From positions 17,568 through 81,567 of the forward strand of contig JAJRUJ010000024.1 in assembly GCA_024277855.1 (NCBI GenBank): DNA of 64,000 nucleotides, read 5' to 3'. The notes beneath the pieces are model-generated. The model was given only the letters and a program-made list of their open reading frames with translations. It was not told the DNA's origin and made no database searches. The first letter of the stretch is position 1. Each line of letters starts with the position of its first letter. Positions 35,214 to 48,930 of this stretch are shown one piece after another. Made by a program: the position numbers and the translations under genes. The DNA is from Candidatus Zixiibacteriota bacterium. Lineage in GTDB: Bacteria; Zixibacteria; MSB-5A5; WJJR01; JAJRUJ01.

Positions 35214-35264
35214 GGGTACCCCACTCCGCCGGGGCGGACGGTGGGATTCGGAATTCACGACCAA
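35214..35264 (+). repeat. REP-like palindromic element, copy B
   Basis: GGGTACCCCACTCCGCCGGGGCGGACGGTGGGATTCGGAATTCA. Overlaps the 3' end of the RAYT gene. Confidence 0.5.
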
Positions 35265-35788
35265 TCAGTACCAATCTTCAGCAGTCCGGATTCTTCTCCC
35301 AGATACGCACGGTAGCTGGACCACCGCCATTCCTCGATTCGTTGAGCAAACCCGGCCCGGACGGGGTTTGCGTGACAATATTGTATCTTCTCTTTAACGG
35401 TTTCAACTGTCCGACAGTTATGATCATAACATCGGCGTTGCCAGAAAACAAGTCGGATATTTCCACTTCGATTTACTTGCAGCCGCGATAGTCTGTAATC
35501 TTTCACGGTCCGCCATCGCTCCAGAATCTTCCTTGCCGAACGAGATTTGACTTCACCGATAACTCGTCCCAACTTGATTGCCGCATGCGGATAAATAACC
35601 AGATGCACATGATTGGGCATAACAACGTAGGACAGCACAGAGAAATTGTATTCCATTCTTGCAGCCTCAATTTCCTCAAGGAGAATGCCAATATCCTCTT
35701 CATTGGTCAGCAGATGATATTTTCGATGGCAAGCAAACGTCACGAATCGTGCTGTGCCGAGATTGTCATAATGATGGAGCCGAGTCAT
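35255..35788 (-). mobile_element. REP-associated tyrosine transposase (RAYT / IS200-like Y1 HuH transposase) gene
   Basis: HuH motif MPNHVHLVIY, and the C-terminal block FWQRRCYDHNCRT...YCHANPVRAGFAQRIEEWRWSSY matches the RAYT pattern (WQ.RF/Y...Y...NPV...W.WSS). Flanked by REP-like repeats on both sides. Confidence 0.75.
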
Positions 35789-35941: not shown

Positions 35942-36793
35942 CTACTCAGTGGTGGTGAGTACCTGCTCAGGTGGGAGTTCGCCTTTTGAGTACACACCGA
36001 TTATATGCAATCCCGAAGTTTCGCTTTTCAAAAGGTCGAGGCACTCGTCGAAAGCAGTGCGGTTTCCCCACTCAAAATCAGTGTGGAAGGAATACTCATA
36101 CGGCCGTCCGGCCAGCGGCACCGACTGGATCAGGGTGAGGTTGAGTCCGAGATCTTTGAAAATCGCGAGGACATCAACCAGCGCACCGGGTTTATGTCTG
36201 GTCGAGAAACTGAGGGTGCATTTGCCGGAAGACAATTCCGCCGATTCTTCTTCGTGTGACAGGACCAGGAACCGGGTATAGTTACTCTTCTGGCTTTCGA
36301 TGCTTTTGGCCAGGATTTCCAATTCGTATTTTTCGGCGGCCAGCCGTCCGGCAATTGCACCGATCCCACTAAGTTTTTTTTCACGAATTTCTTTGGCGCT
36401 GTCAGCGGTATCGAAAGCGTCCTCGCCGACCATCCACGGGTGCGCTTGTAGAAAATCGGAGCATTGCAGGATAGCCATCGGATGCGAACGTACGGTCTTA
36501 ATATCTTCCAACTGCTGACCGGGAAGCGCCATCAGGTGCTGCCGGATACGCAGGTATGTTTCACCGATCACGGTGAGGGGAAAATCTTTGAGCAACGAGC
36601 AGTTCGGTAAAATGCTGCCGACGAGGGTATTTTCGATGGCCATAATTCCCCGGTCGACTCTGCCTTCGACCAGCGCGGAACAGACCTGCCGAAAGAGATT
36701 ACACTCGACTATTTCAACGTCCCGATCGGGGAAAAACTGCAAAGCGGCCTCATGATGAAACGAGGCCTGCCCGCCCTGAATCGCGATCTTCAT
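35942..36793 (-). CDS. pheA: Prephenate dehydratase (PDT + ACT domains)
   Basis: PDT domain and C-terminal ACT. Start MKIAIQG chosen 6 nt after GGAGGAG inside track frame 35942..36826. Confidence 0.85.
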   Translation of the reverse strand: MKIAIQGGQASFHHEAALQFFPDRDVEIVECNLFRQVCSALVEGRVDRGIMAIENTLVGSILPNCSLLKDFPLTVIGETYLRIRQHLMALPGQQLEDIKTVRSHPMAILQCSDFLQAHPWMVGEDAFDTADSAKEIREKKLSGIGAIAGRLAAEKYELEILAKSIESQKSNYTRFLVLSHEEESAELSSGKCTLSFSTRHKPGALVDVLAIFKDLGLNLTLIQSVPLAGRPYEYSFHTDFEWGNRTAFDECLDLLKSETSGLHIIGVYSKGELPPEQVLTTTE

Positions 36794-36927
36794 GTTCATC
36801 TCCTCCCGAACACCTGATGTCGGCAAATACCATAGTTTTTAGATCGTCGGTTTTGCCGGTAATTCAAGTATAACAGATGAATAGCGGGCAAGATATTCAC
36901 TTTAGGTATGCCGGCGCCGCACCCGGC

Positions 36928-37668
36928 TCAAGGCACCGTTCCCTCATGGAGACAAGTGACGCCGAAAGACAGCGACCTGGCCCGGACCGCGGTAAGCCCG
37001 GCTCGTTCCATGCGGTCGGCCAATTGCGCGGGGGTGAGAAAACCGGCGATCGACTCGGGAAGGTATTCATAGGCCTGCCGACGGCTGGAGATCAAACCAC
37101 CGAGGCGGGGAATGACCTGTTTGAAATACCAGTGAAAAAACCGTTTCGCTTGTCGATTGCGGGGGAAGGTCATCTCGAGCACAAAAACCCTGCCGCCGGG
37201 TTTGACCACCCGGCTCATCTCAGCCAACGCCCGGTCTTTGTCGGGGATATTGCGCAGGCCGAAGGCAATAGTCACCGCATCGAAAATATTATCGGCAAAA
37301 GGAAGTTCCAACGCGTCACCGGTGAGATATGCAATCCGCCCGGAGCATCCTCGACGCATCGATTTTTCCACCCCGACCGCCAACATTTCCCGCACAAAAT
37401 CTACACCGATGATTTTCGCCCCGGTGCGCCGCGCCAGGGCGAGCGCCATATCGCCGGTTCCCGAGGCGAGATCGAGAATCAATTCGGCCTCGGATGGAAC
37501 CCGGCCAGCGACAACTCGTCGCCAGTAGATGTCCTGGCAACCGGAGAGGATATGATTGAGCAGATCGTAACGCGGCGTGATCTCACGAAACATCCGGCGA
37601 ACCGCACTCACCCGTTCCTCGTCGGTCCAGTCGCCACTCGATTTTTCCGGCGGTTTTGCCTTCATCAA
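36928..37668 (-). CDS. ubiE: Demethylmenaquinone/ubiquinone C-methyltransferase, UbiE/MenG family
   Basis: UbiE signature, including SAM motif I LDLASGTGD. Confidence 0.85.
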   Translation of the reverse strand: MMKAKPPEKSSGDWTDEERVSAVRRMFREITPRYDLLNHILSGCQDIYWRRVVAGRVPSEAELILDLASGTGDMALALARRTGAKIIGVDFVREMLAVGVEKSMRRGCSGRIAYLTGDALELPFADNIFDAVTIAFGLRNIPDKDRALAEMSRVVKPGGRVFVLEMTFPRNRQAKRFFHWYFKQVIPRLGGLISSRRQAYEYLPESIAGFLTPAQLADRMERAGLTAVRARSLSFGVTCLHEGTVP

Positions 37669-37750
37669 GAACCAATATAACGTCTATCGGGGTAATGCGG
37701 GAGGGTAGAACGGCGACGGCCAGGCCGGTGACACTCTCTGATCATCGTGA

Positions 37751-38305
37751 CTACTTACCAAAAACCGCGGAAATGCCGCGCTTGATTTCGGGCCGGTCGA
37801 GGAGGGTGAAACCGGCGGCCTGGGTGATCTTGACAGTTGTCTCAAAAGCATCCGGTTTGACATGGTCCGTCGGTTCGGAGACCAGGAGACGGCCGTCGGG
37901 TTTGAGGGCACGATACAGATCGGCCATTAATCCGACCGGGTCGGGGATTTCATGGACGACGGCGAAGGCCAGGGTAAAATCAATTTGACCAGCGAGATCA
38001 TCGATGCCAAGTGAGTCGGCCGGGCAAATACGGGTTTCTATCCGCTCAGTCAGGCCTCTGCGCCTGGCGCGACGAAGGAGTGACTTGATCATGCGTTCCT
38101 GCAGGTCGACGGCGATAACTTTGCCGCTGTCGCCGACCATCCGGGCCAACGGCAGGGTGAAAAATCCCATCGCGCAACCGACATCAAGGACACTCATCCC
38201 CGGTTGAACATATGGCGCGAGGATTATTTCGGGTTTTTGCCTGAGCCGCCGCAGCGGACTCGCCAGCCAATACCCCACCCACCAGGGACAGACATGATCG
38301 GACAT
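37751..38305 (-). CDS. Class I SAM-dependent methyltransferase
   Basis: Motif I VLDVGCAMG, post-I acidic residue, motif II/III pattern. 184 aa. Confidence 0.7.
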   Translation of the reverse strand: MSDHVCPWWVGYWLASPLRRLRQKPEIILAPYVQPGMSVLDVGCAMGFFTLPLARMVGDSGKVIAVDLQERMIKSLLRRARRRGLTERIETRICPADSLGIDDLAGQIDFTLAFAVVHEIPDPVGLMADLYRALKPDGRLLVSEPTDHVKPDAFETTVKITQAAGFTLLDRPEIKRGISAVFGK

Positions 38306-38390: not shown

Positions 38391-38420
38391 CCCAACAAAA
38401 GAAGGTGGGCAGCGCCCACC
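38391..38420 (-). terminator. Rho-independent terminator after the PEPCK-like gene
   Basis: GGTGGGC-agc-GCCCACC perfect 7-bp stem, followed on the minus strand by TTCTTTTGTTGG. Confidence 0.5.
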
Positions 38421-38473
38421 CTACTACCACAATTTATTAATCCCAGAATCCAGAAGAAACACAAGTACGCTTG

Positions 38474-40330
38474 TCAGCCATACCGCCAGCCGCGGTCGCG
38501 GGAGAGACGGGCGTTAGGTTTCCAGTCGGTGAGTTTGGTCGGGCTGGATTCTTTTTTGGGCGGTGGTTCGTCGGCTTTTTTAATTCCCGACATAAAGACT
38601 TTTGTCTGTTTTTCCGGCGCGATCGAATATGACTGCTCGGCCGCCCGGATGATCTCGGGCGCCAGGCCCTCTTCGGCGACTTTTTCGGTGAACTTGCGGC
38701 GGCCATCGACGATATCGCGAAGATAATTATCGATCTGGTTTTTCGAATAATATTTTTCGGGGACGTAGGTCGAGAGGTCGGTACCCTCGGCGGCGGTGAT
38801 TTCTTCGGTGCCGAACAAACTGGCGCGATACTGGTTGGTGCCGCGCAGGTCGCCGCGCTGGATTGCCGCCATCGTGTTGATCGGCACGCGTTCGGTCTTG
38901 CGCACCATTGTCTTATTGCCGTCGGGCGTTTTCTCGATAATTTCGCCCATCCCCCCGGTGTTATACTGATAGAAATGCACCTTGCCGGGATAGTTGGCGA
39001 CCAGGTCCATGATGATTTTATAAAAATGGTTCACCTTGTGGGCCCGGGAACCGACGATGAACGGGTCGGTGCCAACCGTGCGCACCGATTCGCCCGCCTT
39101 GGCCGGGTTGGAGGCATAACTGTGGCTCGATTCGCCCCAAAGATAGGCCAGCGTCGCCTGAATCGGGTTAAGCCGCTGGGAGAAGGTCATGATGGTATTC
39201 CGCCGGGTGATGAAAGCGAAAACCAGCCCGTCAAGTTCATCCAGCGGCGGCAGGTTGAGCGACGGATACCAAATGTCTTTCATCGAAAACGGGCCGCGGC
39301 CATGTTTGATTTTCAGCCGCTTGCGCGCGATCACCGCCCGGCCGTTGCCGCAAAGATTCTCATCGAGAAAATCGGGTGTGCCGTCGGCGCGAATCATCAC
39401 ATTTTCAAATAACGCGCTTTTGTGCACCAGCGAGTTATACATCGCCTCCTGCAGCTGGGGATCGACATCGGTCTTGACGAAATAATTAAACTCCGAACCA
39501 TAGGCCGAACCGTCGCTCTTGAGGAAACAGATATCATCCTGGCGAACATACGTGCGTTCGCCTTGCGACCAATCAAGTCCCAACTGGTGGCAGGACCAGG
39601 TGCTCTTGCCGGTGGCGGAAAGTCCGAACAGGAAAACACCGTATCTTTTCAACCTGTTCGTCTTCGGGTCGCGGGTGATCACGACTTTGGTGCCCGCATG
39701 CAAACCAAGCATCCCCAGCACATCGGCCGAATACATCCCCTGCCGGAGAAAACCCTTCTTGTCCTCGCCCATATAATCCGAACCGAGAACGATATTGAGT
39801 TTGTGCCCGGGCAACGCCAGCACCTGCTGGCGAATCTGATGTTCTTCCGGGATATGGATCAGCGTAAATTCCGGTCCCGGGGCTTTGGTTGCCGGCCCCA
39901 TAGTATTGCCCCACATGTAGGCCAGCCGGTGGTTTTTCAAATCGGCAACCGACATGTAGAGATTGCATTTGGGATTGTACCCGTCGTTCTCACCCATTTG
40001 CCGCCGGAGACGCACAAACGGCAGCGTTTCCATCAGGTGCAAAACTTTGTCGAGTTCATCGGGAGCCGAGGAGATGATCTTGCGTTTTTGTTCGCTCAGG
40101 TGAAATTCGCGGACTTTCTCCTCGCCGAGATAACAGGTCTTACCGCCGATCAGGCTGGAGACCGCCGAACGCCAGCCCCAGGAACCAAACTTGGTCTGTA
40201 TTCCGGTTTGCAGCGCAGGTTCACGCAAATCTTCGAGGGTGACGTCTTTGATATTCGGCCCGTTTAACCGGCGTTGAAGATCACGGTAAAACCGGTTGTA
40301 AAATTCGACATGGTACGGCGAGTCGGACAT
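38474..40330 (-). CDS. Phosphoenolpyruvate carboxykinase (ATP)-like protein, divergent 618-aa member
   Basis: Collinear ATP-PEPCK motifs: GSDYMGEDKKG (compare GSWYGGEMKKG), P-loop LFGLSATGKST (compare FFGLSGTGKTT), VRQDDICF (compare IGDDEHGW), YQYNTGGMG (compare NTGW). Length and several substitutions are atypical. Confidence 0.6.
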   Translation of the reverse strand: MSDSPYHVEFYNRFYRDLQRRLNGPNIKDVTLEDLREPALQTGIQTKFGSWGWRSAVSSLIGGKTCYLGEEKVREFHLSEQKRKIISSAPDELDKVLHLMETLPFVRLRRQMGENDGYNPKCNLYMSVADLKNHRLAYMWGNTMGPATKAPGPEFTLIHIPEEHQIRQQVLALPGHKLNIVLGSDYMGEDKKGFLRQGMYSADVLGMLGLHAGTKVVITRDPKTNRLKRYGVFLFGLSATGKSTWSCHQLGLDWSQGERTYVRQDDICFLKSDGSAYGSEFNYFVKTDVDPQLQEAMYNSLVHKSALFENVMIRADGTPDFLDENLCGNGRAVIARKRLKIKHGRGPFSMKDIWYPSLNLPPLDELDGLVFAFITRRNTIMTFSQRLNPIQATLAYLWGESSHSYASNPAKAGESVRTVGTDPFIVGSRAHKVNHFYKIIMDLVANYPGKVHFYQYNTGGMGEIIEKTPDGNKTMVRKTERVPINTMAAIQRGDLRGTNQYRASLFGTEEITAAEGTDLSTYVPEKYYSKNQIDNYLRDIVDGRRKFTEKVAEEGLAPEIIRAAEQSYSIAPEKQTKVFMSGIKKADEPPPKKESSPTKLTDWKPNARLSRDRGWRYG

Positions 40331-40336
40331 TACCTG

Positions 40337-40759
40337 TTATTCCCTGGGTAAAATTTCATCTTCGCGGAAAAAGAAGCTGACTTCGATTTTGGCATTTGCC
40401 GCCGAGTCAGAACCGTGCACAACGTTTTTTTCGATTGATGTCGCATATTCACGGCGGATCGTATTGTATTTCGCCCTGGCCGGATCGGTAGCGCCCATCA
40501 ACTCCCGCCACTTTTCGATTGAACCGTGCCCGCCAATGACCAACGCGACAATCGGCCCGGAGGTCATAAACTCGACCAGTGAATGGAAAAACGGTTTGTC
40601 CTCGTGGACGGCATAAAATTTTTCGGCTCGTTCAGGGGTGAGCTGTAAAATTTTCAGCCCCCGAATAACCAGCCCGGATTGTTCGATTTTGGAAATTACC
40701 CGGCCGACCAGTTTGCGCCGGACGCCGTCCGGCTTAATGATCCCCAGCGTATTTGCCAC
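40337..40759 (-). CDS. ndk: Nucleoside diphosphate kinase
   Basis: Full-length NDK: GIIKPDG, NVVHGSDS active-site His region. GTG start with AAGGAG ribosome-binding site overlapping the upstream stop. Confidence 0.95.
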   Translation of the reverse strand: MANTLGIIKPDGVRRKLVGRVISKIEQSGLVIRGLKILQLTPERAEKFYAVHEDKPFFHSLVEFMTSGPIVALVIGGHGSIEKWRELMGATDPARAKYNTIRREYATSIEKNVVHGSDSAANAKIEVSFFFREDEILPRE

Positions 40760-40768
40760 ACCTGCTCC

Positions 40769-43114
40769 TTAACTGATTAATTCCTTAATGCGCGCTTTAA
40801 GCGCCTCGGGCGGGATCGCCGCAACATTGACTTTATACGCCTTGGCCACCCGGAAAAGCTGATGAAAATTTCGCCGTTGCAAGTCTTCGCCATCCGCCGA
40901 CGAATCGAATAAATATGGATTAAAAAACGGCTGCTGATAGTAAGGCGACATTCCTGCGCCGTCGGGCAGCCGGTATTTGCCCTCGGTGATATACTCCAGC
41001 GCATCTTCGGCCTCAAGTTTGTCCACAGCCGGGGCGTGGGGATCGTAGCCGAGTATTGCGACTGCGTGTATTTTTGAGCGTTTCACATATCCCGCCGGGC
41101 CGCCGATCCAGGCCGGGTCGACCAAGGCCCGCGAGTCTGTCGATCCCCAGTAGCAATAGGGTTCACCCAGGTCGAGCGGATTTTCTTCATCGGCCAGCGC
41201 CATGTTCGTCCAGTCGGCGCGGGTGGCTACGACATTTTCACACTTGCTTCGATCAAAAATCCGGGCATAGCGGGGGAACTCACGCACCATGGCAGTCTTC
41301 AGATAGAATTTTCGTTCCGGCGCATCGGCAATCGCCTCATTGCCCCGGTAGCGGACAAAGACCCAGTCGTTTGAGACAAAGCGGACATCATCATCCTCAA
41401 GGAACCGGGTGAAAAGTGAACCCCGTTTGGTGCCTTTTGGCCCGATCAACGCCAGTCCCCTGCCACCACAATCAACGCATGCGGCACGGAGACCGTGGAC
41501 ATCCAACAGCCGTTCGGAGGCCTGCGCCACCATCGCCAGCGCCCAACTGCGCACCTGGCCGTAGTAGGAGGTGTTAAACAAAATTGCCGTTTTCATTTCC
41601 GGACAGTAATAACCAAACGGCGTCCGGCCGGCAACCCCGTCGACCGCATAGATGATCGCGTGCGGTTCGAGGTCCGATTCAAGCTGTGCCGGATACCAGT
41701 TTTCGACCCAGAAATCATACAGGTGCGGGACATTGGTGCGCAACTGGACGATGATCCCGTTGATATTGGCATTCCATTCGAAATAGCGGTCGAACGGGAG
41801 CGCGGCCTCGGCCTGCTGAACCAGCGCGTCGCGTTCGTCAACAGAAATTTCGGTTTCGGCCTCGGTCATCCCGCGCGGATGAGTCATCACATTCTGCAAG
41901 GCCACCTGTTTGTATCTCGGCGATTCTTTCAACCGGGCCATGGCCTCGATGATCCGGTCGGTACCTTCCTCGATTTTCTCCATCGAGGTGGCATACGAAA
42001 TCCGGATGTTTTCATCGGCGCCGAAAGCACTGCCGGGCACCAGGGCGACTGCCGCCTCACGCAGGAGATAATAGGCCAGCGCGTAAGAATTGCGGATTTT
42101 CATCCCGTGATATTCAGTGTGATAATATTCAGCAGTGTTGGGCAACAGGTAGAACGCGCCCTGCGGCTGGTGACAGGAGATTCCCGGGATGCGAGTGAGC
42201 TTATTGAGCATATAATTACGCCGCGTCTGAAATTCCTGCCGCATCCGGTTGACTGCCGATTGGTCGCCGGTAAACGCCTCGACCGCCGCTTTCTGAGCGA
42301 TCGAGTTGGCGTTCGACGTTGTGTGCGACTGGATGATACTCATCGCCGCGACAAGGTCACGCGGTCCGGCGGCATACCCGATCCGCCAACCGGTCATCGC
42401 ATAGGCCTTGGAAACCCCATTGATGATCACCGCTTTGGCTTTAATCTTCTCGGAAAGAGCGGCGACCGAACAGAAACGAAAATCGTCATAGACGACTTTC
42501 TCATAAATCTCATCGGCGATAATCAGCAGTCCCTCGTCCACCGCGATCTCGCAAATTTCATGTAATTGGTCGCGGGTATAGGCCGACCCGGTCGGATTCG
42601 AGGGGTTGTTAATGACAATGGCCTTGGTGTTGAAACTGATATTGGCTTTTAACTGGTCGGGCGTAAGACGAAAACCGTTATCCTCCCGCGTGGGAACAAT
42701 CACCGGTTTGCCTTTGACCATCAATACCTGCTGCGGATACGACACCCAGTAAGGGGCGGGAATAATAACCTCTTCATTTTTGTTGATGGTCGCCAGAAAA
42801 AGATTGGCTATGCTCTGTTTGGCCCCGGAAGAGACAATGATCTCTTTGGCGTCGTACTCCACGCCATGATCTTCCCGCAACCGGGTCTGGATTGCCGCTT
42901 TCAGTTCGGGGATACCTTCGTTGCCGGTGTAGCGGGTGAAGTTATCGTCGATTGCCTGTTTGCCGGCGTTTTTGATATGTTCCGGGGTATGAAAATCCGG
43001 TTCACCGACAGAGAAATCGATAACGTCGATTCCCTCGGCTTTCATCGCCCGTGCCTTGGCGCTGATGCGCAGGGTGGGTGAAAGTTCCAGCCGTCCGATC
43101 CTGTTGGAAATCAT
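40769..43114 (-). CDS. Fusion protein: class-I aspartate aminotransferase (about 400 aa) + C-terminal HprK/PEPCK-like P-loop domain (about 380 aa)
   Basis: N-terminal half: GEPDF, NPSNPTG, SKAYAMTGWRIGY (PLP-Lys) of AspAT. C-terminal half: GRGLALIGPKGTKRGSL (degenerate Walker A) then FLEDDDVRFVSNDWV, paralleling HprK GDSGVGKSE...ADDRV and PEPCK GLSGTGKT...IGDDEH. Single uninterrupted ORF. Confidence 0.7.
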   Translation of the reverse strand: MISNRIGRLELSPTLRISAKARAMKAEGIDVIDFSVGEPDFHTPEHIKNAGKQAIDDNFTRYTGNEGIPELKAAIQTRLREDHGVEYDAKEIIVSSGAKQSIANLFLATINKNEEVIIPAPYWVSYPQQVLMVKGKPVIVPTREDNGFRLTPDQLKANISFNTKAIVINNPSNPTGSAYTRDQLHEICEIAVDEGLLIIADEIYEKVVYDDFRFCSVAALSEKIKAKAVIINGVSKAYAMTGWRIGYAAGPRDLVAAMSIIQSHTTSNANSIAQKAAVEAFTGDQSAVNRMRQEFQTRRNYMLNKLTRIPGISCHQPQGAFYLLPNTAEYYHTEYHGMKIRNSYALAYYLLREAAVALVPGSAFGADENIRISYATSMEKIEEGTDRIIEAMARLKESPRYKQVALQNVMTHPRGMTEAETEISVDERDALVQQAEAALPFDRYFEWNANINGIIVQLRTNVPHLYDFWVENWYPAQLESDLEPHAIIYAVDGVAGRTPFGYYCPEMKTAILFNTSYYGQVRSWALAMVAQASERLLDVHGLRAACVDCGGRGLALIGPKGTKRGSLFTRFLEDDDVRFVSNDWVFVRYRGNEAIADAPERKFYLKTAMVREFPRYARIFDRSKCENVVATRADWTNMALADEENPLDLGEPYCYWGSTDSRALVDPAWIGGPAGYVKRSKIHAVAILGYDPHAPAVDKLEAEDALEYITEGKYRLPDGAGMSPYYQQPFFNPYLFDSSADGEDLQRRNFHQLFRVAKAYKVNVAAIPPEALKARIKELIS

Positions 43115-43117
43115 GGG

Positions 43118-44500
43118 CTATTCTCCGCTCGGCGTACCGGACTGGTCTGGTTTCTCATCAGACAATTTCTGCACCCAGGCCTCGAGGTCGAACCCGGAAA
43201 GCGATTTGACAACCGTCGGCAGTTGACCCATCATCGAGGCCAATTCACCGGTAATTTTGGATGTTCCCAATTTGCCGTCGTTGGAAACCATGACGATTTT
43301 ATCGACCTGGGAAATCGGCGCGGCCATTTCACGGGCAAGGTCGGGGAGTTTCTCAAAGATCATTTGCAACAGGGCCGGCTGAGAGCAGGAATTCCAGGAT
43401 TCCGCTTTTTTGCGCAATGCCCCCGCCTCGGCTTCACCGACTTTTTCGACCAATTCGGCCTCGATCAACCCCTGAACCCGCTTGGCCTCGGCCATTCCAC
43501 GAGCTTCGGCTTCAAGCCGGAATCGTTCAGCTTCGGCCGGTTTGCGGACGGTGGCTTCCAGTTCCTGTTCAACCCGCTCAATTTCTTTTTTCTCCAGCGC
43601 GATCGCAGTGTCTTTTTCGATGAGCTTGACTTTACTCTCTTCGGCTTTCAAATCCTGATTGAGTTTGTGCCGCTCGAGTTCGTAAGAGAAATCGGCGTCG
43701 GCTTTCTTGCGATTCAGATCGGCTTGCAATTCGGCCTTTTCCAGATCGAGCGACTGGTTGGCGCGCGCGACTTCGGTATCGGCCTGAATTTTGGCAATGT
43801 CCCCTTCTTTCTTGGCTTCGGCCGACTTGATAATCGCATCGCGGGCGGCCTCGGCTTCGGCCACTTCAGCATCACGGCGCGCCTCGACAATCCGCGGCTT
43901 CCCGAGAGCTTCAAGGTATCCTGAGGGGTCGGTGATTCTATTTAAATTGAAAGAAAGTAAATTGAGTCCCATGTTCTGAAAATATGCGCCGACATCTTCG
44001 AAGACTTTCGCCGTAAAACCTTTACGATTTTTGTTGATCGAATCGAGGTTCATCGTGCCGATCAGGGCACGAGTGGAGCCTTCCAGTGTCCGGAGGGCCA
44101 CGTCACGAATGTCAGTAAGTTGTTTGCCCAAAAATTGCTCGGCGGCCAGGTGAATCGAGGCCTCATCACCGGCAATTTTAATTTCGGCCGTTCCCCGCAC
44201 CGTGCAACGGATACCGTTGGTCGAGATGGCATCCTCGACCTGGATCTCCATCGGAACAATCTCCAGCGGCAGGGTCTGCGCCTGCTCGGTGAACGGATTG
44301 ACAAAAGTGCTCCCGCCAATCCGGTAACGGTACCCCACCTGTCTGCTGGAACCATCGGGCAGAGTAATCGTGCGCTTCTTGCCCCCCGAAACGATCAAGG
44401 CCTCGTTCGGACCGACTTTGTGGTAATTTTTCAAAACAAAGACGATAATTGCCGCAATCAGAAGCACTGCGGCAATGGCAACATAGACTAAGGAACTCAC
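43118..44500 (-). CDS. Flotillin-family SPFH/band-7 protein
   Basis: N-terminal TM helix then VGPNEALIVSGG, long EA-rich coiled coil, C-terminal flotillin region. Start reassigned to in-frame GTG at 44500 (MSSLVYVAIAAV...) 7 nt after GAAGGAGAG; track start is 44548. Confidence 0.8.
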   Translation of the reverse strand: MSSLVYVAIAAVLLIAAIIVFVLKNYHKVGPNEALIVSGGKKRTITLPDGSSRQVGYRYRIGGSTFVNPFTEQAQTLPLEIVPMEIQVEDAISTNGIRCTVRGTAEIKIAGDEASIHLAAEQFLGKQLTDIRDVALRTLEGSTRALIGTMNLDSINKNRKGFTAKVFEDVGAYFQNMGLNLLSFNLNRITDPSGYLEALGKPRIVEARRDAEVAEAEAARDAIIKSAEAKKEGDIAKIQADTEVARANQSLDLEKAELQADLNRKKADADFSYELERHKLNQDLKAEESKVKLIEKDTAIALEKKEIERVEQELEATVRKPAEAERFRLEAEARGMAEAKRVQGLIEAELVEKVGEAEAGALRKKAESWNSCSQPALLQMIFEKLPDLAREMAAPISQVDKIVMVSNDGKLGTSKITGELASMMGQLPTVVKSLSGFDLEAWVQKLSDEKPDQSGTPSGE

Positions 44501-44885
44501 GATTAGACTCTCCTTCAGAATAATTAAGAGGCGACATTTCCCAGCCACCGGAAACTATTTTTCACTATAATAATAGACCTATTTCCGGAGAAAAGTCAAC
44601 CGCTCTCTGTCAGAATCTTTGTGAAGTATTTAGCTAAATAGCGGATATTTTTAAATTAATCAAATTACAGAGTCCGGGGTCTTCCCGGGATCGCTCCAAG
44701 GACAAAAGGAATTTATAACCGACTATATCACAATAAAATAATACACTATTCAACATTATCACAACCCACCGTAATTATCTATTAACTTAACATAATACTG
44801 CGTAATCGACTTAATCGCAACCAATTAAGAGCCGATACAATATTTTGCGAGAGGTTTGGGCGGGCATATCAGAAAACTATGACAA

Positions 44886-45100: not shown

Positions 45101-45142
45101 AAAAAAAAACGCCGGACGAACCTGGCGCCCGGCGATTTTTTT
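45101..45142 (-). terminator. Bidirectional rho-independent terminator just downstream of the transketolase-family gene
   Basis: AAAAAAAAA-CGCCGG-(13 nt)-CCGGCG-ATTTTTTT: GC stem flanked by an A-run and a T-run. Confidence 0.6.
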
Positions 45143-45161: not shown

Positions 45162-47564
45162 TCAGCCGGTGACCGGCGTCTTCTTTTCCCGCGCCCGGGC
45201 AAAGTCAATGATCGCCTTGAGTTGACCCTCGGCATGGACCCCGGCCTCCTCCAGGACTTTTTCGGCTTTACCGCTGCCCAGAAATCGACCGGCACGGAAC
45301 GGATAGAGTGTGCGCCGCAGGCCATCGTTTGTGCGAACCCAATAATACATCGTCGGCAGGGTGAAATCGGTAATCCCCATCGATTCAAGCGCCAGTTTTT
45401 CCGGGAAGATTTCCTCACGTTCACTCGCCGACAATGCGGCGAACAACTCCATGCTCGTCACATAGAAGATGTTGAAATTGTAGCCCTGTTTCTCGAGTTC
45501 GGGAAGGACATCATTCAGGAAAATTGTCGCTACCGCATTCCCCTGCAAAACCAGCGTACCATCATAGCGGTCGGCATTGGGGTCGGCCCGGCGCAGGGCA
45601 TAGATCCCCTTCACCGCGGCCGTGACCGGCGGCAAGCCGAGTTTATTCCGATCAAGAATAGTATCCGCCGGACGAGTTACAAACGGCGCCAGGATAGCCG
45701 GCCGCGCCTGCAAACCGGCAACCAACAACGGCCAGACTTCGTTGGCGTCCCATGGCGTCAGGGTGATCAGGATACTTTTGGGAAAACATTCCTGTAATAA
45801 TTGCAGTGGCTGCGGATCGGCGTGAGTGGGACCGTCCTCCCCGGTTTTTGGCCCGACGTGACCATTCAGCATAATCCAGGTATTGTACGGCAACCCGGTA
45901 AGATCCCGCCGTGACTGTTGACCGATGCCGTGGGTACGCGCCGGTACATGCTCCATCGCGGCCAGGAAAGCGCCATAGGAAGCGGTGATCCCGATGTGCC
46001 GGCCAAAGCTCGATACGCCGGCCATAAACCCGCCCATCGCATCTTCACAGATTCCCCCAACCGCAACCAGGCGGGAACCCGGGTTGTTTTTGGCATGGAA
46101 AAGCCCCTCGGCGATATCTTTGTTAATTGCCGCGATACTGGTCGAACCGGCCAGGTCGGCCGCCGTGGCGATCATCGCGCCGGATGAGTGTTTCGTCAGG
46201 TGATTGATCGCCGAGCCGAGCGCACCCCGCAAGGTTACCGAATCGCCGGGTTTAAAGACCAATGTCGCCGGTGCATTATCCACGTTGATCGCATTGTTGT
46301 CATAGAGCTTGGCCAGCTTCGGCGCATTCTCGCGCGGCGACCGTTTTCGCGCATCGAGACGCTCTTTGGCCTTGGCGATATTTTCGCCGAAGAATTGCGA
46401 GATTTCGCTGTTTTTTTCGATGACTGATCGCAGGGCCATCAGTGTGTCGTAGAAATTCTGTTCGACATTTTTGGGCGAGTTGTCACCTTCAATTCGGGGT
46501 AGTTCGACACCGAAGGCCGTCTCAAATTCTTTCAACGATTTGTAATAACCGTCCGAGCCGTATTTGTGGCCGGCCCCGTGCGATGCTCTCCCCTCGATGC
46601 CGTATTTCCAGCCCTTAACCGTTTTGTATACCACGGCGGTGGGCTGTCCATTGTCTATCGATAGGGCCAGCTTTTGCCCGGTGAGGACCTGACGAAAATC
46701 AAAACCGTCGGCAACGTCAATGACATTCCAATCATGGAAATACAGCAACTCCGCCGGGTTCCACTGCACATATTCACCCGGGCCGTCGGCATTGAGACAG
46801 ACATGGTTTGAGTCGATCGACGCCTGATTGAAATCGATATGCATGACGATATTGTTCAATCCGGCACTGGCCGCCGCGGCAATCGCTTCATGGACCCGCC
46901 CCGGAGTCATCCCGCCCTCGCCTTCGAGGACATGGATTTTCGGTGCATCGCTGCCATAATAATCCAATGCGCCCATGGCCAGACCAAAAGAGGTCGGGAC
47001 ACCGACACCACTCGGCCCGGTTGCAATCTTAATAAACGGCACCATGCAGGTCGGATGACCATCCAGCGCCTTGGCCTTGAACCTCTCAAACAACGGGGTG
47101 TGTTGCGTCGGGTTACGGCGAAACCCGAGCAGGTCCTCCAAACGAAGTTGGAATTTCTCTTCGGCCAGCATTTCCGGTCGACCGGCGCGCGCCAACTCAT
47201 TGCGCAGCGCCCACATTGCGTACAGACCCATTGCCTTATGCCCGGCCGCATACGACAGCAGGTCAGAATCGTCCCGGCTCGGGTCGGAAAGATCGTAATC
47301 CATCCAGCGGTAAATCAGACCTTCGACAATATGCCCCGAGGAGATTGAACCTCCGGGATGCCCCGAAGTCGGGACGAAATTATAGAGTATTGCGCACAGG
47401 GTGCGGTAGATGATATCCATCCGCTCCCACAACCTCTGCTCGTCGGCAGAAAGTGAAATTGCCGCCGCGTCGGTTTTCTCGGAGATTTGATAATAAATCG
47501 CCCGCCGGTCCAGATACTTAATCTGGGTGGGGGTGACACCGGATACGGCTTGATCATTTGCCAT
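45162..47564 (-). CDS. Transketolase-family thiamine-diphosphate enzyme, atypically long (800 aa)
   Basis: GHPGGS (TK His motif), TPP-binding EGEGG...N block, GEDGPTHADPQ (TK signature GEDGPTHQ). About 140 aa longer than canonical Tkt. Confidence 0.6.
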   Translation of the reverse strand: MANDQAVSGVTPTQIKYLDRRAIYYQISEKTDAAAISLSADEQRLWERMDIIYRTLCAILYNFVPTSGHPGGSISSGHIVEGLIYRWMDYDLSDPSRDDSDLLSYAAGHKAMGLYAMWALRNELARAGRPEMLAEEKFQLRLEDLLGFRRNPTQHTPLFERFKAKALDGHPTCMVPFIKIATGPSGVGVPTSFGLAMGALDYYGSDAPKIHVLEGEGGMTPGRVHEAIAAAASAGLNNIVMHIDFNQASIDSNHVCLNADGPGEYVQWNPAELLYFHDWNVIDVADGFDFRQVLTGQKLALSIDNGQPTAVVYKTVKGWKYGIEGRASHGAGHKYGSDGYYKSLKEFETAFGVELPRIEGDNSPKNVEQNFYDTLMALRSVIEKNSEISQFFGENIAKAKERLDARKRSPRENAPKLAKLYDNNAINVDNAPATLVFKPGDSVTLRGALGSAINHLTKHSSGAMIATAADLAGSTSIAAINKDIAEGLFHAKNNPGSRLVAVGGICEDAMGGFMAGVSSFGRHIGITASYGAFLAAMEHVPARTHGIGQQSRRDLTGLPYNTWIMLNGHVGPKTGEDGPTHADPQPLQLLQECFPKSILITLTPWDANEVWPLLVAGLQARPAILAPFVTRPADTILDRNKLGLPPVTAAVKGIYALRRADPNADRYDGTLVLQGNAVATIFLNDVLPELEKQGYNFNIFYVTSMELFAALSASEREEIFPEKLALESMGITDFTLPTMYYWVRTNDGLRRTLYPFRAGRFLGSGKAEKVLEEAGVHAEGQLKAIIDFARAREKKTPVTG

Positions 47565-47949
47565 AACTATCGGCCCTCGTTGGAATTATGCGGTACAATA
47601 CCGTGGCAGGTCTCTGCGCTTTCTTTGCAAATAACCACTTTCCGGCAAGCGCAATGGGCAAAGCCCATCTTGCCTGCTCGTTATCTAAAACAAAGAAATT
47701 TACGTTACCGTCGAACGAAAGTCCAGTCCTGCCCCGGTTTGACGGTGTCAAAATCGCCCGGGCGCGGGCCTGGATACGCCTGTCTCAAAGCCCGGGGGCA
47801 ACGAAACTTCACGATGCCCGACTCGTATACCAGAATAACTCGAAATAAGTGGTTGATTAATGCCCAAAAGCCCGCGAAACAAGATCATCTCTGACGGCCG
47901 ACGGGGACAACCGTCCGGAGCCGGTCATTATCGCCGGGAGGGGGAAGTT

Positions 47950-48930
47950 ATGAGCAGGTTATTCGTTCGCGGAATGGTCGCCCTGATCGCCGTCGGGTTC
48001 ATCTTTATCAGCACCGGATATGCCGACGAGACCTACGAATTTACGAATATCCGCCGGATTAAATTCGAGGGCGTTTCCGGAGATATCACCCTCCTGAAAA
48101 ATGACGGCAGCGGGGTGGTGGTTGAATTATACGACAATGTCCGCCCACGGAGGAAATTCCGCGCCGAGGTGGAAGAAGAAGACGGTGTGCTTTATATCGA
48201 AGAGCGTTGGTCTTCCGGACACAACGACGGCGAGGTTCGCTGGACAATTTACCTGCCGGAAACCAAAAAGCCGATCAAATTCAAGGCGAACACCGCCTCG
48301 GGCAATCTGACCTGTCGAGAGATCACTGCGCGGATTAAGTTCAATACGGCCAGCGGCGATATCGAGTTGACCGGAGTGAACCTGCCGGAAGGGTCCAGTT
48401 TCAACACCGCCAGCGGCGACATTCTGCTGGAAGATATGATCCTCGAGGAAGAAAGTGATTTCAGTACGGCCAGCGGTGATATCGAATTATCCAAGGTCAC
48501 CTTGCAGGAAGAATGCAGCTTTTCAACGGCCTCGGGCGATGTCCGTTGTCGCGGTTGCAGCGGCAAATTCAAACTGAGTTCAGCCAGCGGTGATGTCTCG
48601 TTTAAAGACGGATTAATTACCGGTCGCAGCAGTTTTAGCTCCGCCTCGGGTAATGTGACTCTTGTGCTGGACAAGCTGCCCAAATTTGACTTGAAGGTCT
48701 CAACGGCATCGGGCCGGGTTCTGCTTGATGTTGATGATTTCGGCGACAATTTCACCCTGGTGATGGTCAAGCGGCGTGATCGCGGACGGATTTCCTGTCC
48801 GTTTGAATATACCTCCGAAGACACCTTTGAAGATTACCAAATTTATGAGGAAAAAGTTGTTGAACGGGGCAAGGGCGGTCCGGAGATTTACCTGAGCACC
48901 GCCTCGGGCAAGGTCACCGTGAAAAATTGA
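47950..48930 (+). CDS. DUF4097-family beta-strand repeat protein (YvlB/LiaG-like putative adhesin), N-terminal TM/signal
   Basis: Seven tandem 18-20-aa repeats F(N/S)TASGD(I/V)xL.... GGGAGGGGGAAG ribosome-binding site. Start ATG 47950 inside track frame 47860..48930. Confidence 0.65.
   Translation: MSRLFVRGMVALIAVGFIFISTGYADETYEFTNIRRIKFEGVSGDITLLKNDGSGVVVELYDNVRPRRKFRAEVEEEDGVLYIEERWSSGHNDGEVRWTIYLPETKKPIKFKANTASGNLTCREITARIKFNTASGDIELTGVNLPEGSSFNTASGDILLEDMILEEESDFSTASGDIELSKVTLQEECSFSTASGDVRCRGCSGKFKLSSASGDVSFKDGLITGRSSFSSASGNVTLVLDKLPKFDLKVSTASGRVLLDVDDFGDNFTLVMVKRRDRGRISCPFEYTSEDTFEDYQIYEEKVVERGKGGPEIYLSTASGKVTVKN

Follow-up and report, generated by a model that had tools for sequence, protein, structure and literature searches.

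A flotillin-linked aminotransferase with a predicted degenerate PEP carboxykinase domain in Candidatus Zixiibacteriota

The DNA analyzed here (the window) comprises 64,000 nucleotides from a Candidatus Zixiibacteriota bacterium (assembly GCA_024277855.1, contig JAJRUJ010000024.1, positions 17,568 to 81,567 of the forward strand). Its minus strand carries four consecutive genes, encoding a flotillin (flot), an aminotransferase fused to a C-terminal domain that we call X (aspC::X), a nucleoside-diphosphate kinase (ndk) and a divergent ATP-type phosphoenolpyruvate (PEP) carboxykinase (PEPCK), here named pckL (Table 1). Sequence profiles and a structure model identify X as a predicted truncated paralogue of ATP-PEPCK that in this clade has lost catalytic residues and nevertheless appears to be under purifying selection, and the flotillin, fusion and pckL genes are linked across several phyla.

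Table 1. Features of the operon and its surroundings (positions in the window)
Feature	Position	Strand	Remarks
Flotillin gene	43118..44500	-	460 aa from GTG 44500; SPFH/Band_7 and Flot C-terminal domain
aspC::X fusion	40769..43114	-	Single 781-aa ORF
Aminotransferase domain, fusion residues 1–395	41930..43114	-	Aminotran_1_2 and best solved relatives
PLP-lysine motif SKAYAMTGW, residues 235–243, Lys236	42386..42412	-	Sequence
Domain X, fusion residues 399–781	40772..41920	-	383 aa; predicted truncated two-lobed PEPCK-fold domain
Degenerate Walker-A of X, GPKGTKRGS, residues 558–566	41417..41443	-	P-loop Lys→Arg564, Ser/Thr→Gly565
S-N-D of X, residues 581–583	41366..41374	-	From alignments, equivalent of PEPCK Asp268/Asp269 and HprK 'ADD'; first Asp→Asn582
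ndk	40337..40759	-	Nucleoside-diphosphate kinase, 140 aa
pckL	38474..40330	-	Divergent ATP-type PEP carboxykinase, 618 aa
pckL P-loop GLSATGKST, residues 236–244	39599..39625	-	Aligned to E. coli GLSGTGKTT
pckL codon 60, CTG (Leu)	40151..40153	-	Arg in all relatives; probable Arg65 equivalent
pckL C-terminal extension, residues ~575–618	38477..38608	-	Variable charged/Pro-rich linker, then conserved W-x-P-x-x-R…G-W-R-[YW]
Promoter-like site TTGACT-18-TATTAT	44570..44599	-	5' of flotillin gene; 10/12 consensus; consensus scan only
Terminator-like hairpin	38402..38422	-	9-bp stem, 6 G-C pairs, T-rich tail, 52 nt past pckL stop; pattern scan only
Terminator-like hairpin of transketolase-like gene	45110..45134
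Transketolase-like gene	45162..47564	-	800 aa, very divergent
Y1 transposase gene	35255..35788	-	177 aa, IS200-like
Two methyltransferase genes and prephenate dehydratase gene	35942..38305	-	3' of the operon
Gene for a protein with repeated 'TASGD' units	47860..48930	+	356 aa

Four genes on the minus strand

A first-pass annotation, made from the sequence alone, had placed four tightly spaced and probably co-transcribed genes here, and the list of open reading frames (ORFs) of the window bore out their coordinates. The intergenic gaps are 3, 9 and 6 nt, from flotillin to pckL. An AAGGAG sequence overlaps the stop codon of the fusion, a GGAG lies ahead of the fusion ATG, and the pckL start is preceded by a weak AGG only. 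A promoter-like site and a terminator-like hairpin flank exactly the four genes; both are pattern matches only, and the promoter consensus scan returned 9 sites where 5.9 were expected by chance. The transketolase-like gene upstream of the operon is followed by a terminator-like hairpin of its own. With their tight spacing and these bracketing signals, the four genes probably form one co-transcribed unit.

The flotillin ORF ends at position 43118, and its longest form begins at GTG 44548. GTG 44500 is the better predicted start, because a GGAGA ribosome-binding site lies 7 nt upstream of it and the NCBI source record gives the same 460-aa product. The protein matched Pfam Band_7 (E 2e-22, 80.3 bits, cut-off 23.6) and Flot (E 2e-8, 34.5 bits, cut-off 27), and scored below the cut-off of the NCBIfam FloT equivalog NF058507 (327 bits vs 700). 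The ndk product scored above both of its cut-offs (Pfam PF00334 NDK, E 2e-53, 180.2 bits vs 27; NCBIfam NF001908, 187.9 bits vs 155). None of the four proteins matched a PADLOC defence-system model at E up to 0.001, and an Rfam scan of the whole window gave no match.

The N-terminal half of the fusion matched Pfam Aminotran_1_2 (E 5e-78, 263.4 bits vs a cut-off of 19.7), residues 30–388 covering model positions 2–361 of 361, and this was the only Pfam match on the whole fusion. Scores against the NCBIfam aspartate-transaminase models were below the cut-offs (NF004769, 442.5 vs 617; NF041091, 409.7 vs 550). The best solved relatives were the Phormidium aspartate aminotransferase (AspAT) 1J32 (E 2e-110), Sinorhizobium AatA/AatB and the Arabidopsis aspartate/prephenate aminotransferase. 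In an alignment of 49 fusions, S235, K236, Y238, M240, T241, G242 and W243 of the motif around the lysine that would bind pyridoxal phosphate (PLP) were invariant, as were the fold-type-I active-site residues N173, D201, Y204, K236 and R371. We take the AspAT roles of these five residues from established knowledge, and not from a structural superposition. By these matches the N-terminal half is a predicted subgroup-Ib aspartate (or aspartate/prephenate) aminotransferase, in agreement with the complete class-I AspAT originally proposed.

For comparison, we scanned one genome per GTDB species, which gave 421 loci with an X relative; the best 80 of the 421 were fetched and all their ORFs clustered. 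A single-ORF fusion (>700 aa, about 780 aa) was present in 70 of these 80 species-representative loci, and >100 full-length database clusters of 779–823 aa exist. A linker of about 12 residues joins the aminotransferase to X in frame and without a stop. Because the 70 single-ORF fusions occur in species-representative genomes of many phyla, the fusion is genuine and not an assembly artefact.

A few incomplete forms were also seen. One locus (L005) has a split database entry, a pair of 289 and 482 aa. The metagenome-assembled genome (MAG) of Zixibacteria bin142, labeled 'closed' (CP070796.1), contains two truncated copies of the module (L038 and L041), one with aminotransferase residues 258–395, X and ndk, the other with X residues 42–382, ndk and the first 48 residues of pckL. 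These copies likely reflect a duplication, a misassembly or a masked stretch, and they explain the 'partial' database entries P0003 and P0006.

Domain X, a PEPCK-like domain with a degenerate active site

Searched alone, X of the window gave no Pfam match at E up to 10, no NCBIfam match at E up to 1 and only noise against the sequences of solved structures, and a BLASTP comparison of X with pckL was not significant. Its homology was visible only with family profiles and structure. The database search returned 151 relatives of X in two groups: fusions to an aminotransferase, found in Zixibacteria, Acidobacteriota, Calditrichota and others, and stand-alone 357-aa proteins, mainly from Thermodesulfobacteriota. 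At 50% identity the family made up 529 clusters in a database of 1.84 billion proteins. Some relatives showed weak Hpr_kinase_C or PEPCK_ATP matches, and a few stand-alone ones carry the precomputed Pfam accession PF27840, which was absent from our local Pfam copy; the domain may already be catalogued there.

An AlphaFold2 model of X, built from a 49-sequence alignment, was confident, with a predicted local distance difference test (pLDDT) of 93.9 and a predicted template modeling score (pTM) of 0.92, and showed the two-lobed PEPCK architecture of an N-terminal lobe and a P-loop nucleotide lobe. The best fold match was the T. cruzi ATP-PEPCK (score 31.5, 342 of 383 residues at 3.0 Å), followed by GTP-PEPCK (22.9, 340 residues), the Euglena complex-I subunit NDUEG2 (19.7, 269 residues), PPi-PEPCK (16.8, 344 residues) and HprK/P (13.6–15, 133–151 residues). 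Profile comparisons with hhalign matched the X family to the pckL family (E 5e-8, 94.8% probability) and X residues 21–383 to residues 93–468 of E. coli PckA, the latter at 78% probability and thus moderately reliable (the PckA reference sequence is identical to 1AQ2). Stand-alone relatives matched NF006821, a PEPCK subfamily model that pckL matches as well, at 5e-8 and 2e-11 and over nearly the full length, far under its cut-off.

Similarity to HprK was more confined. The X family profile matched the P-loop core of solved HprK at E 0.005 over ~55 residues. Relatives scored 12–27 bits against Pfam Hpr_kinase_C, under the 33.3 cut-off, with no match for X of the window, and one fused relative reached E 3e-6 against PF07475. 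The earlier reading of the C-terminal half as an HprK/PEPCK-like domain thus stands as regards fold and profile homology, and the proper reference is PEPCK rather than HprK. Because the fold matches and the sequence profiles agree, X is predicted to be a truncated, two-lobed paralogue of ATP-PEPCK, equivalent to about residues 93–468 of E. coli PckA.

The active site of X has been altered in the fused forms. The first-pass annotation had pointed to a Walker-A-like GPKGTKRGS and a downstream EDDDV block. The former is present, but EDDDV aligned to a variable loop and was rejected as the catalytic Asp block; the equivalent of the Asp pair is the S-N-D at residues 581–583. Among 49 stand-alone X proteins, 48 had the P-loop APTGTGK[ST]T, 48 had S-D-D and 48 had Lys at the position equivalent to Lys212 of PckA. 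The 36 fusions of the Zixibacteria clade had the P-loop GP[KR]G[LMT]KRG[ST], with Lys→Arg and Ser/Thr→Gly in 36/36, the first Asp replaced by Asn in 34/36, and Arg at the Lys212 equivalent in 36/36. Fusions of the other clades (n = 43) mostly had GP[KP]GT[KG]K[TS]E, keeping the Lys in 35/43 and the Ser/Thr in 33/43, with first Asp→Asn in 31/43 and Arg at the Lys212 equivalent in 37/43; here the equivalents of Arg333 and Tyr207 were frequently lost. The Zixibacteria-clade domains keep the equivalents of Tyr207, His232, Asp269, Lys288 and Arg333. In nearly all members of the family the equivalent of the Mn ligand Lys213 is Ser, and in the alignment to E. coli PckA nothing in X matches the Arg65 segment or the adenine loop (Arg449 region), with a gap opposite WNGTGKR.

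Within Zixibacteria, X is 72–79% identical, compared with 73–80% for the aminotransferase half and 76–84% for pckL. A block in the N-lobe of X (residues 444–485) is invariant and better conserved than the P-loop, and the Arg of its QLRTN motif is invariant in the fused forms only (79/79). These identities suggest that X is under purifying selection and changes no faster than the aminotransferase half. The Lys→Arg and Ser/Thr→Gly replacements, together with the missing equivalents of Lys213, the Arg65 segment and the adenine loop, make it unlikely that X is a working PEPCK or kinase here. Since catalytic residues were lost despite strong conservation, X probably retains a function, one that is presumably non-catalytic in this clade.

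The ancestral domain was probably an enzyme, because the stand-alone relatives have a canonical Walker A and the Asp-Asp pair. Several of these, of 357–384 aa (P0091 and P0120; loci L001, L086 and L087), carry the Walker A APTGTGKST, and they look like active enzymes.

pckL and the conserved gene neighborhood

The pckL product matched Pfam PEPCK_ATP (E 2e-21, 76.6 bits vs 26.5), with residues 95–340 alone aligned. It reached 257.8 bits with NF006821, under the cut-off of 369, over model positions 22–517 of 525, and the other PEPCK models gave at most 31 bits. NCBI names the protein 'phosphoenolpyruvate carboxykinase (ATP)' and the fusion 'aminotransferase'. Profile alignment to E. coli PckA (97–98% probability) paired Y186 with Y207, K191/K192 with K212/K213, H211 with H232, S238 with S250, K242 with K254, S243 with T255, D265/D266 with D268/D269, K286 with K288 and R331 with R333. 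The matched catalytic residues were invariant in 22 relatives, except S238 (Ser/Thr) and S243 (nearly invariant). Within the P-loop, G236, A239, T240, G241, K242 and T244 were invariant, L237 was nearly so like S243, and the mean column identity of the family was 71%. These matches agree with the original description of a neighbor that keeps the ATP-PEPCK motifs with substitutions, here G→A and T→S, and the 618-aa protein is predicted to be a divergent ATP-PEPCK with intact C-lobe catalytic residues.

The agreement may not extend to the N-lobe. In the relatives of pckL the Arg of an SSR[IL][AG]xKT motif is invariant (21/21 locus homologues and 116/116 database homologues), and the window copy has Leu60 in its place. 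The conserved Arg probably corresponds to E. coli Arg65, which binds oxaloacetate/PEP, although the N-lobe alignment is ambiguous. The codon is identical in the NCBI source contig, and Leu60 could be a true substitution that inactivates the enzyme or changes its specificity, or a single-base MAG error.

The C-terminal extension of pckL lies C-terminal to the part aligned with E. coli PckA, and the solved PEPCKs compared do not have it. R608 and R616 are invariant in it and W615 nearly so, and the tail is kept whether or not pckL adjoins the fusion. The extension resembles a tail for docking or membrane binding.

The phyla represented include Zixibacteria, Calditrichota, KSB1, Aminicenantes/Acidobacteriota, Gemmatimonadota, Eisenbacteria, Latescibacteria and TA06. 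By ORF calls, a flotillin gene lay directly 5' of the fusion, on the same strand, in 56 of the 63 loci with enough flank (median gap 16 nt); counting tblastn flotillin hits, it did so in ~60/63, or about 95%. This adjacency held in every clade, also at loci without pckL within 10 kb. No NfeD-like gene was found in the operon of the window or among the conserved neighbors of the fetched loci. pckL lay directly 3' in 42 of 51 loci (39, plus 3 with ORF calls overlapping the fusion). In two further loci, from a Gemmatimonadota genome and an Eisenbacteria genome, it was divergent and just 5' of flot (L042, 5061–6905, minus strand; L084, 263–2128, minus strand), and its linkage to the module therefore survived rearrangement. 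With the divergent cases included, pckL is next to the module at about 86% of loci. One further locus of the 51 (L054) has pckL at another place, an arrangement shared by L057 and L061. An ndk gene between the fusion and pckL was confined to the Zixibacteria clade (17/51 loci), and in a few Calditrichota-type loci it was 3' of pckL.

No further gene family was conserved in more than 17 loci. Between Zixibacteria, Calditrichota, KSB1, Aminicenantes, Gemmatimonadota and Eisenbacteria, the proteins of the three-gene core remain 45–60% identical, whereas the other neighbors all change. The conserved core is thus flot–aspC::X–pckL, linked across several phyla. The four-gene neighborhood as first described is conserved in these three genes, but ndk is clade-specific, and the most constant neighbor of the fusion is flotillin rather than pckL.

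Fusions at loci with no pckL within 10 kb (L044, L045, L046, L048, L049, L055 and L060) mostly retain GTG[KR], with Gly as the sixth Walker-A residue, and they often keep the Asp-Asp pair and the Arg333 equivalent, whereas pckL-adjacent fusions are degenerate. This is a trend only, in a handful of independent clades, and was not used as evidence; it hints that X catalysis was lost where a separate PEPCK is co-encoded.

Around the stand-alone X genes, two neighbors initially drew attention. A 'NfeD1b_N' protein, considered as an SPFH link, turned out to be a common S49 peptidase of the SppA type, and a 658-aa protein considered as a pckL homologue was not homologous.

The transketolase-like protein matched Transketolase_N (E 2e-14) and Transket_pyr (E 6e-11), with a best NCBIfam transketolase score of 129 bits vs a cut-off of 488, and its gene is syntenic with the operon in just one other locus (L036). 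On its 3' side the operon is followed by genes for two methyltransferases, one a small SAM-methyltransferase and the other of the UbiE/COQ5 type, and for an ACT-domain prephenate dehydratase. The dehydratase merits a brief mention because aspartate/prephenate aminotransferases are among the solved proteins closest to the aminotransferase half; in other genomes its gene was not seen linked to the module. Adjoining it is the Y1 transposase gene (Pfam Y1_Tnp, E 4e-10), which could be of the REP-associated tyrosine transposase type. The 356-aa protein on the plus strand matched the DUF4097 'toastrack' family (E 1e-24).

Possible functions and comparison with known systems

Cells maintain the unstable metabolite oxaloacetate at very low levels, and its hand-over from enzyme to enzyme is a long-running question. 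The conservation of the three genes suggests a dedicated aspartate–oxaloacetate–PEP module. In the model that we tentatively prefer, although we would not put it above an even chance, the aminotransferase half would interconvert aspartate and oxaloacetate, and pckL would interconvert oxaloacetate + ATP and PEP + CO2 + ADP. X would be a non-catalytic 'pseudo-PEPCK' that docks the dimeric aminotransferase onto the PEPCK, so that the unstable oxaloacetate stays local, or alternatively a sensor of oxaloacetate, PEP or phosphate. Ndk would re-equilibrate nucleotides in the Zixibacteria clade, and flotillin may position the assembly at the membrane.

Several observations weigh against this model. 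An AlphaFold2 model of the full-length fusion had good individual domains, but at a pTM of 0.60 the domain packing was not defined, and there is consequently no confident aminotransferase–X interface. Channeling itself is purely inferred. Leu60 could impair the proposed PEPCK step in this genome. As Arg sometimes substitutes for the P-loop Lys, X may have residual activity. No pckL was present within 10 kb in 6 of 51 loci, and flotillin is the steadier partner, which would fit a role of X that is independent of pckL. Finally, the stand-alone X genes lie in contexts unrelated to the module: guaB–guaA–LOG–small ORF–X–sppA in Thermodesulfobacteriota and TPM-phosphatase–X–UDG in another clade.

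Alternatively, X could serve mainly flotillin and not pckL, as a membrane-raft docking or regulatory domain that localizes or gates the aminotransferase, for example beside an amino-acid transporter, with pckL a frequent but dispensable companion. Flotillin lies 5' on the same strand in ~90–95% of loci, those lacking pckL included; with no NfeD gene present, the fusion occupies the usual 'flotillin partner' position, and the N-lobe block with its fused-only Arg is better conserved than the P-loop. We nevertheless regard this explanation as unlikely: a contact between flotillin and X is purely conjectural, stand-alone X genes are not beside SPFH genes, and the linkage to pckL, having outlasted two independent rearrangements, can hardly be due to chance. 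It is more doubtful still that X remains active as a phosphotransferase, whether as an unconventional mini-PEPCK or as a kinase for the 2-oxo-acid product of the aminotransferase, in which case the fusion would be a bifunctional enzyme leading from aspartate through oxaloacetate to PEP and pckL a separately used isozyme. The equivalents of Tyr207, His232, Asp269, Lys288 and Arg333 kept in the Zixibacteria clade, the P-loop Lys and Ser/Thr kept by most fusions of the other clades, the fully canonical motifs of the stand-alone relatives and the tendency of fusions without pckL nearby toward such motifs would all suit an enzyme. But the P-loop Lys and the Mg-binding Ser/Thr are replaced throughout the Zixibacteria clade, Ser stands at the Lys213 position almost family-wide, and an alignment that starts at about residue 93 of E. 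coli PckA and has the adenine loop deleted offers neither an Arg65 segment nor an Arg449 counterpart. Moreover, different catalytic residues have been lost in each clade, a pattern typical of relaxed selection on catalysis.

We attach an equally small probability to housekeeping synteny without functional coupling, in which X would be an allosteric or oligomerization appendage of a housekeeping aminotransferase and pckL the ordinary PckA of these bacteria. All four products are of central-metabolism or housekeeping types, ndk is clade-specific, and the database names of pckL and the fusion suggest nothing unusual; yet the core is kept across phyla as other neighbors change, the gaps are of a few nucleotides, and fusion to a paralogue of the neighboring enzyme would be an unlikely coincidence. 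An error of assembly or gene calling that joined two genes, to which the split and partial entries (the latter both on one contig) might point, has a negligible probability given that the 70 fusions are independent, come from many studies and assemblers and include closed MAG chromosomes.

Of these explanations, we continue with a pseudo-PEPCK that tethers or senses within an Asp⇄oxaloacetate⇄PEP module. In a bolder form, which we consider a long shot, X would pair with the active PEPCK, perhaps through the basic/aromatic C-terminal tail of the latter, and flotillin would anchor all of them in membrane microdomains, giving a raft-organized Asp⇄oxaloacetate⇄PEP metabolon in peptide-degrading bacteria of the FCB group and Acidobacteriota. 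If true, this would be the first example of a pseudoenzyme paralogue that tethers enzymes of two successive steps in central metabolism, and also the first of a flotillin whose operon encodes a soluble central-metabolism client.

An oxaloacetate-making enzyme fused to a degraded copy of its consumer, with the active consumer encoded next door, is a candidate for tethering or channeling at the PEP–oxaloacetate node. The constant flotillin linkage without NfeD could give bacterial flotillins a defined metabolic client, and the X family amounts to a small branch of the PEPCK/HprK superfamily, so far unannotated, in which stand-alone members are apparently active and fused ones degenerate. In current metabolic reconstructions of Zixibacteria, Calditrichota, Aminicenantes and KSB1, these genes pass for an ordinary 'aminotransferase' and a 'PckA'. 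Should the coupling prove unreal, what remains is a new domain architecture of modest interest. All components come from known superfamilies; apparently undescribed are the combination of an AspAT with a truncated PEPCK, the degenerate PEPCK subfamily and the constant pairing with a flotillin that has no NfeD partner. The first-pass annotation had called the fusion novel, and a literature search on the fusion, PEPCK-like domains, Zixibacteria metabolism, PF27840 and AspAT–PEPCK channeling found nothing relevant, although the domain itself may not be new to Pfam in view of PF27840.

The components can be compared with several characterized systems. The aminotransferase half resembles the solved Ib enzymes over its full length (1J32, Sinorhizobium 6F77/6F35, Thermus 1BJW and Arabidopsis PAT 5WMH; E 1e-83 to 1e-110) and, like them, has the PLP-Lys motif and the other aminotransferase residues, which are invariant across fusions. 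Unlike the fusion, none of the solved Ib AspATs or aspartate/prephenate aminotransferases has a C-terminal PEPCK-fold domain. Compared with the flotillin operons of B. subtilis (floT + nfeD2; floA + nfeD1b), the arrangement here is similar in that a flotillin with SPFH and Flot domains and an N-terminal membrane segment opens a tight operon with a dedicated partner gene, but the partner is the aminotransferase::PEPCK-like fusion rather than an NfeD protein, and the flotillin falls short of FloT itself (327 bits vs the equivalog cut-off of 700).

In relation to PckA, pckL is a full-length homologue with the P-loop and the equivalents of Tyr207, Lys212, Lys213, His232, Asp268, Asp269, Lys288 and Arg333. 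It is very divergent from the solved PEPCKs (best match E 1e-7 over ~155 residues), from which it also differs by insertions, the conserved C-terminal tail and, in the window copy, the Leu at the probable Arg65 position. X keeps equivalents of the ATP-PEPCK motifs YYGQxR/K, HG, P-loop, S[DN]D, ERKFYxKT, CENV, SRA and N[TV][GA] (PF01293; E. coli 1AQ2, T. cruzi 1II2, T. thermophilus 2PC9), but is ~150 residues shorter, lacks counterparts of E. coli residues 1–92 and 469–540 and of the adenine loop, and is fused to an aminotransferase. With HprK/P (PF07475) and the HprK-related kinases A/B (TIGR04352, TIGR04355) X shares a PEPCK-type P-loop lobe, and its profile matches the core H-G…G-x-G-K-S-E…A-D-D. 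X differs from HprK in having a PEPCK N-lobe and no HprK N-terminal domain; just ~133–151 of its 383 residues match, all scores lie under the family cut-offs, and the signature Lys and Ser are substituted in X of the window. A further PEPCK-fold relative is the Euglena gracilis complex-I accessory subunit NDUEG2 (8J9H), which from a general reading of the entry description we presume to be non-catalytic, but which is eukaryotic and mitochondrial and has no aminotransferase fused to it.

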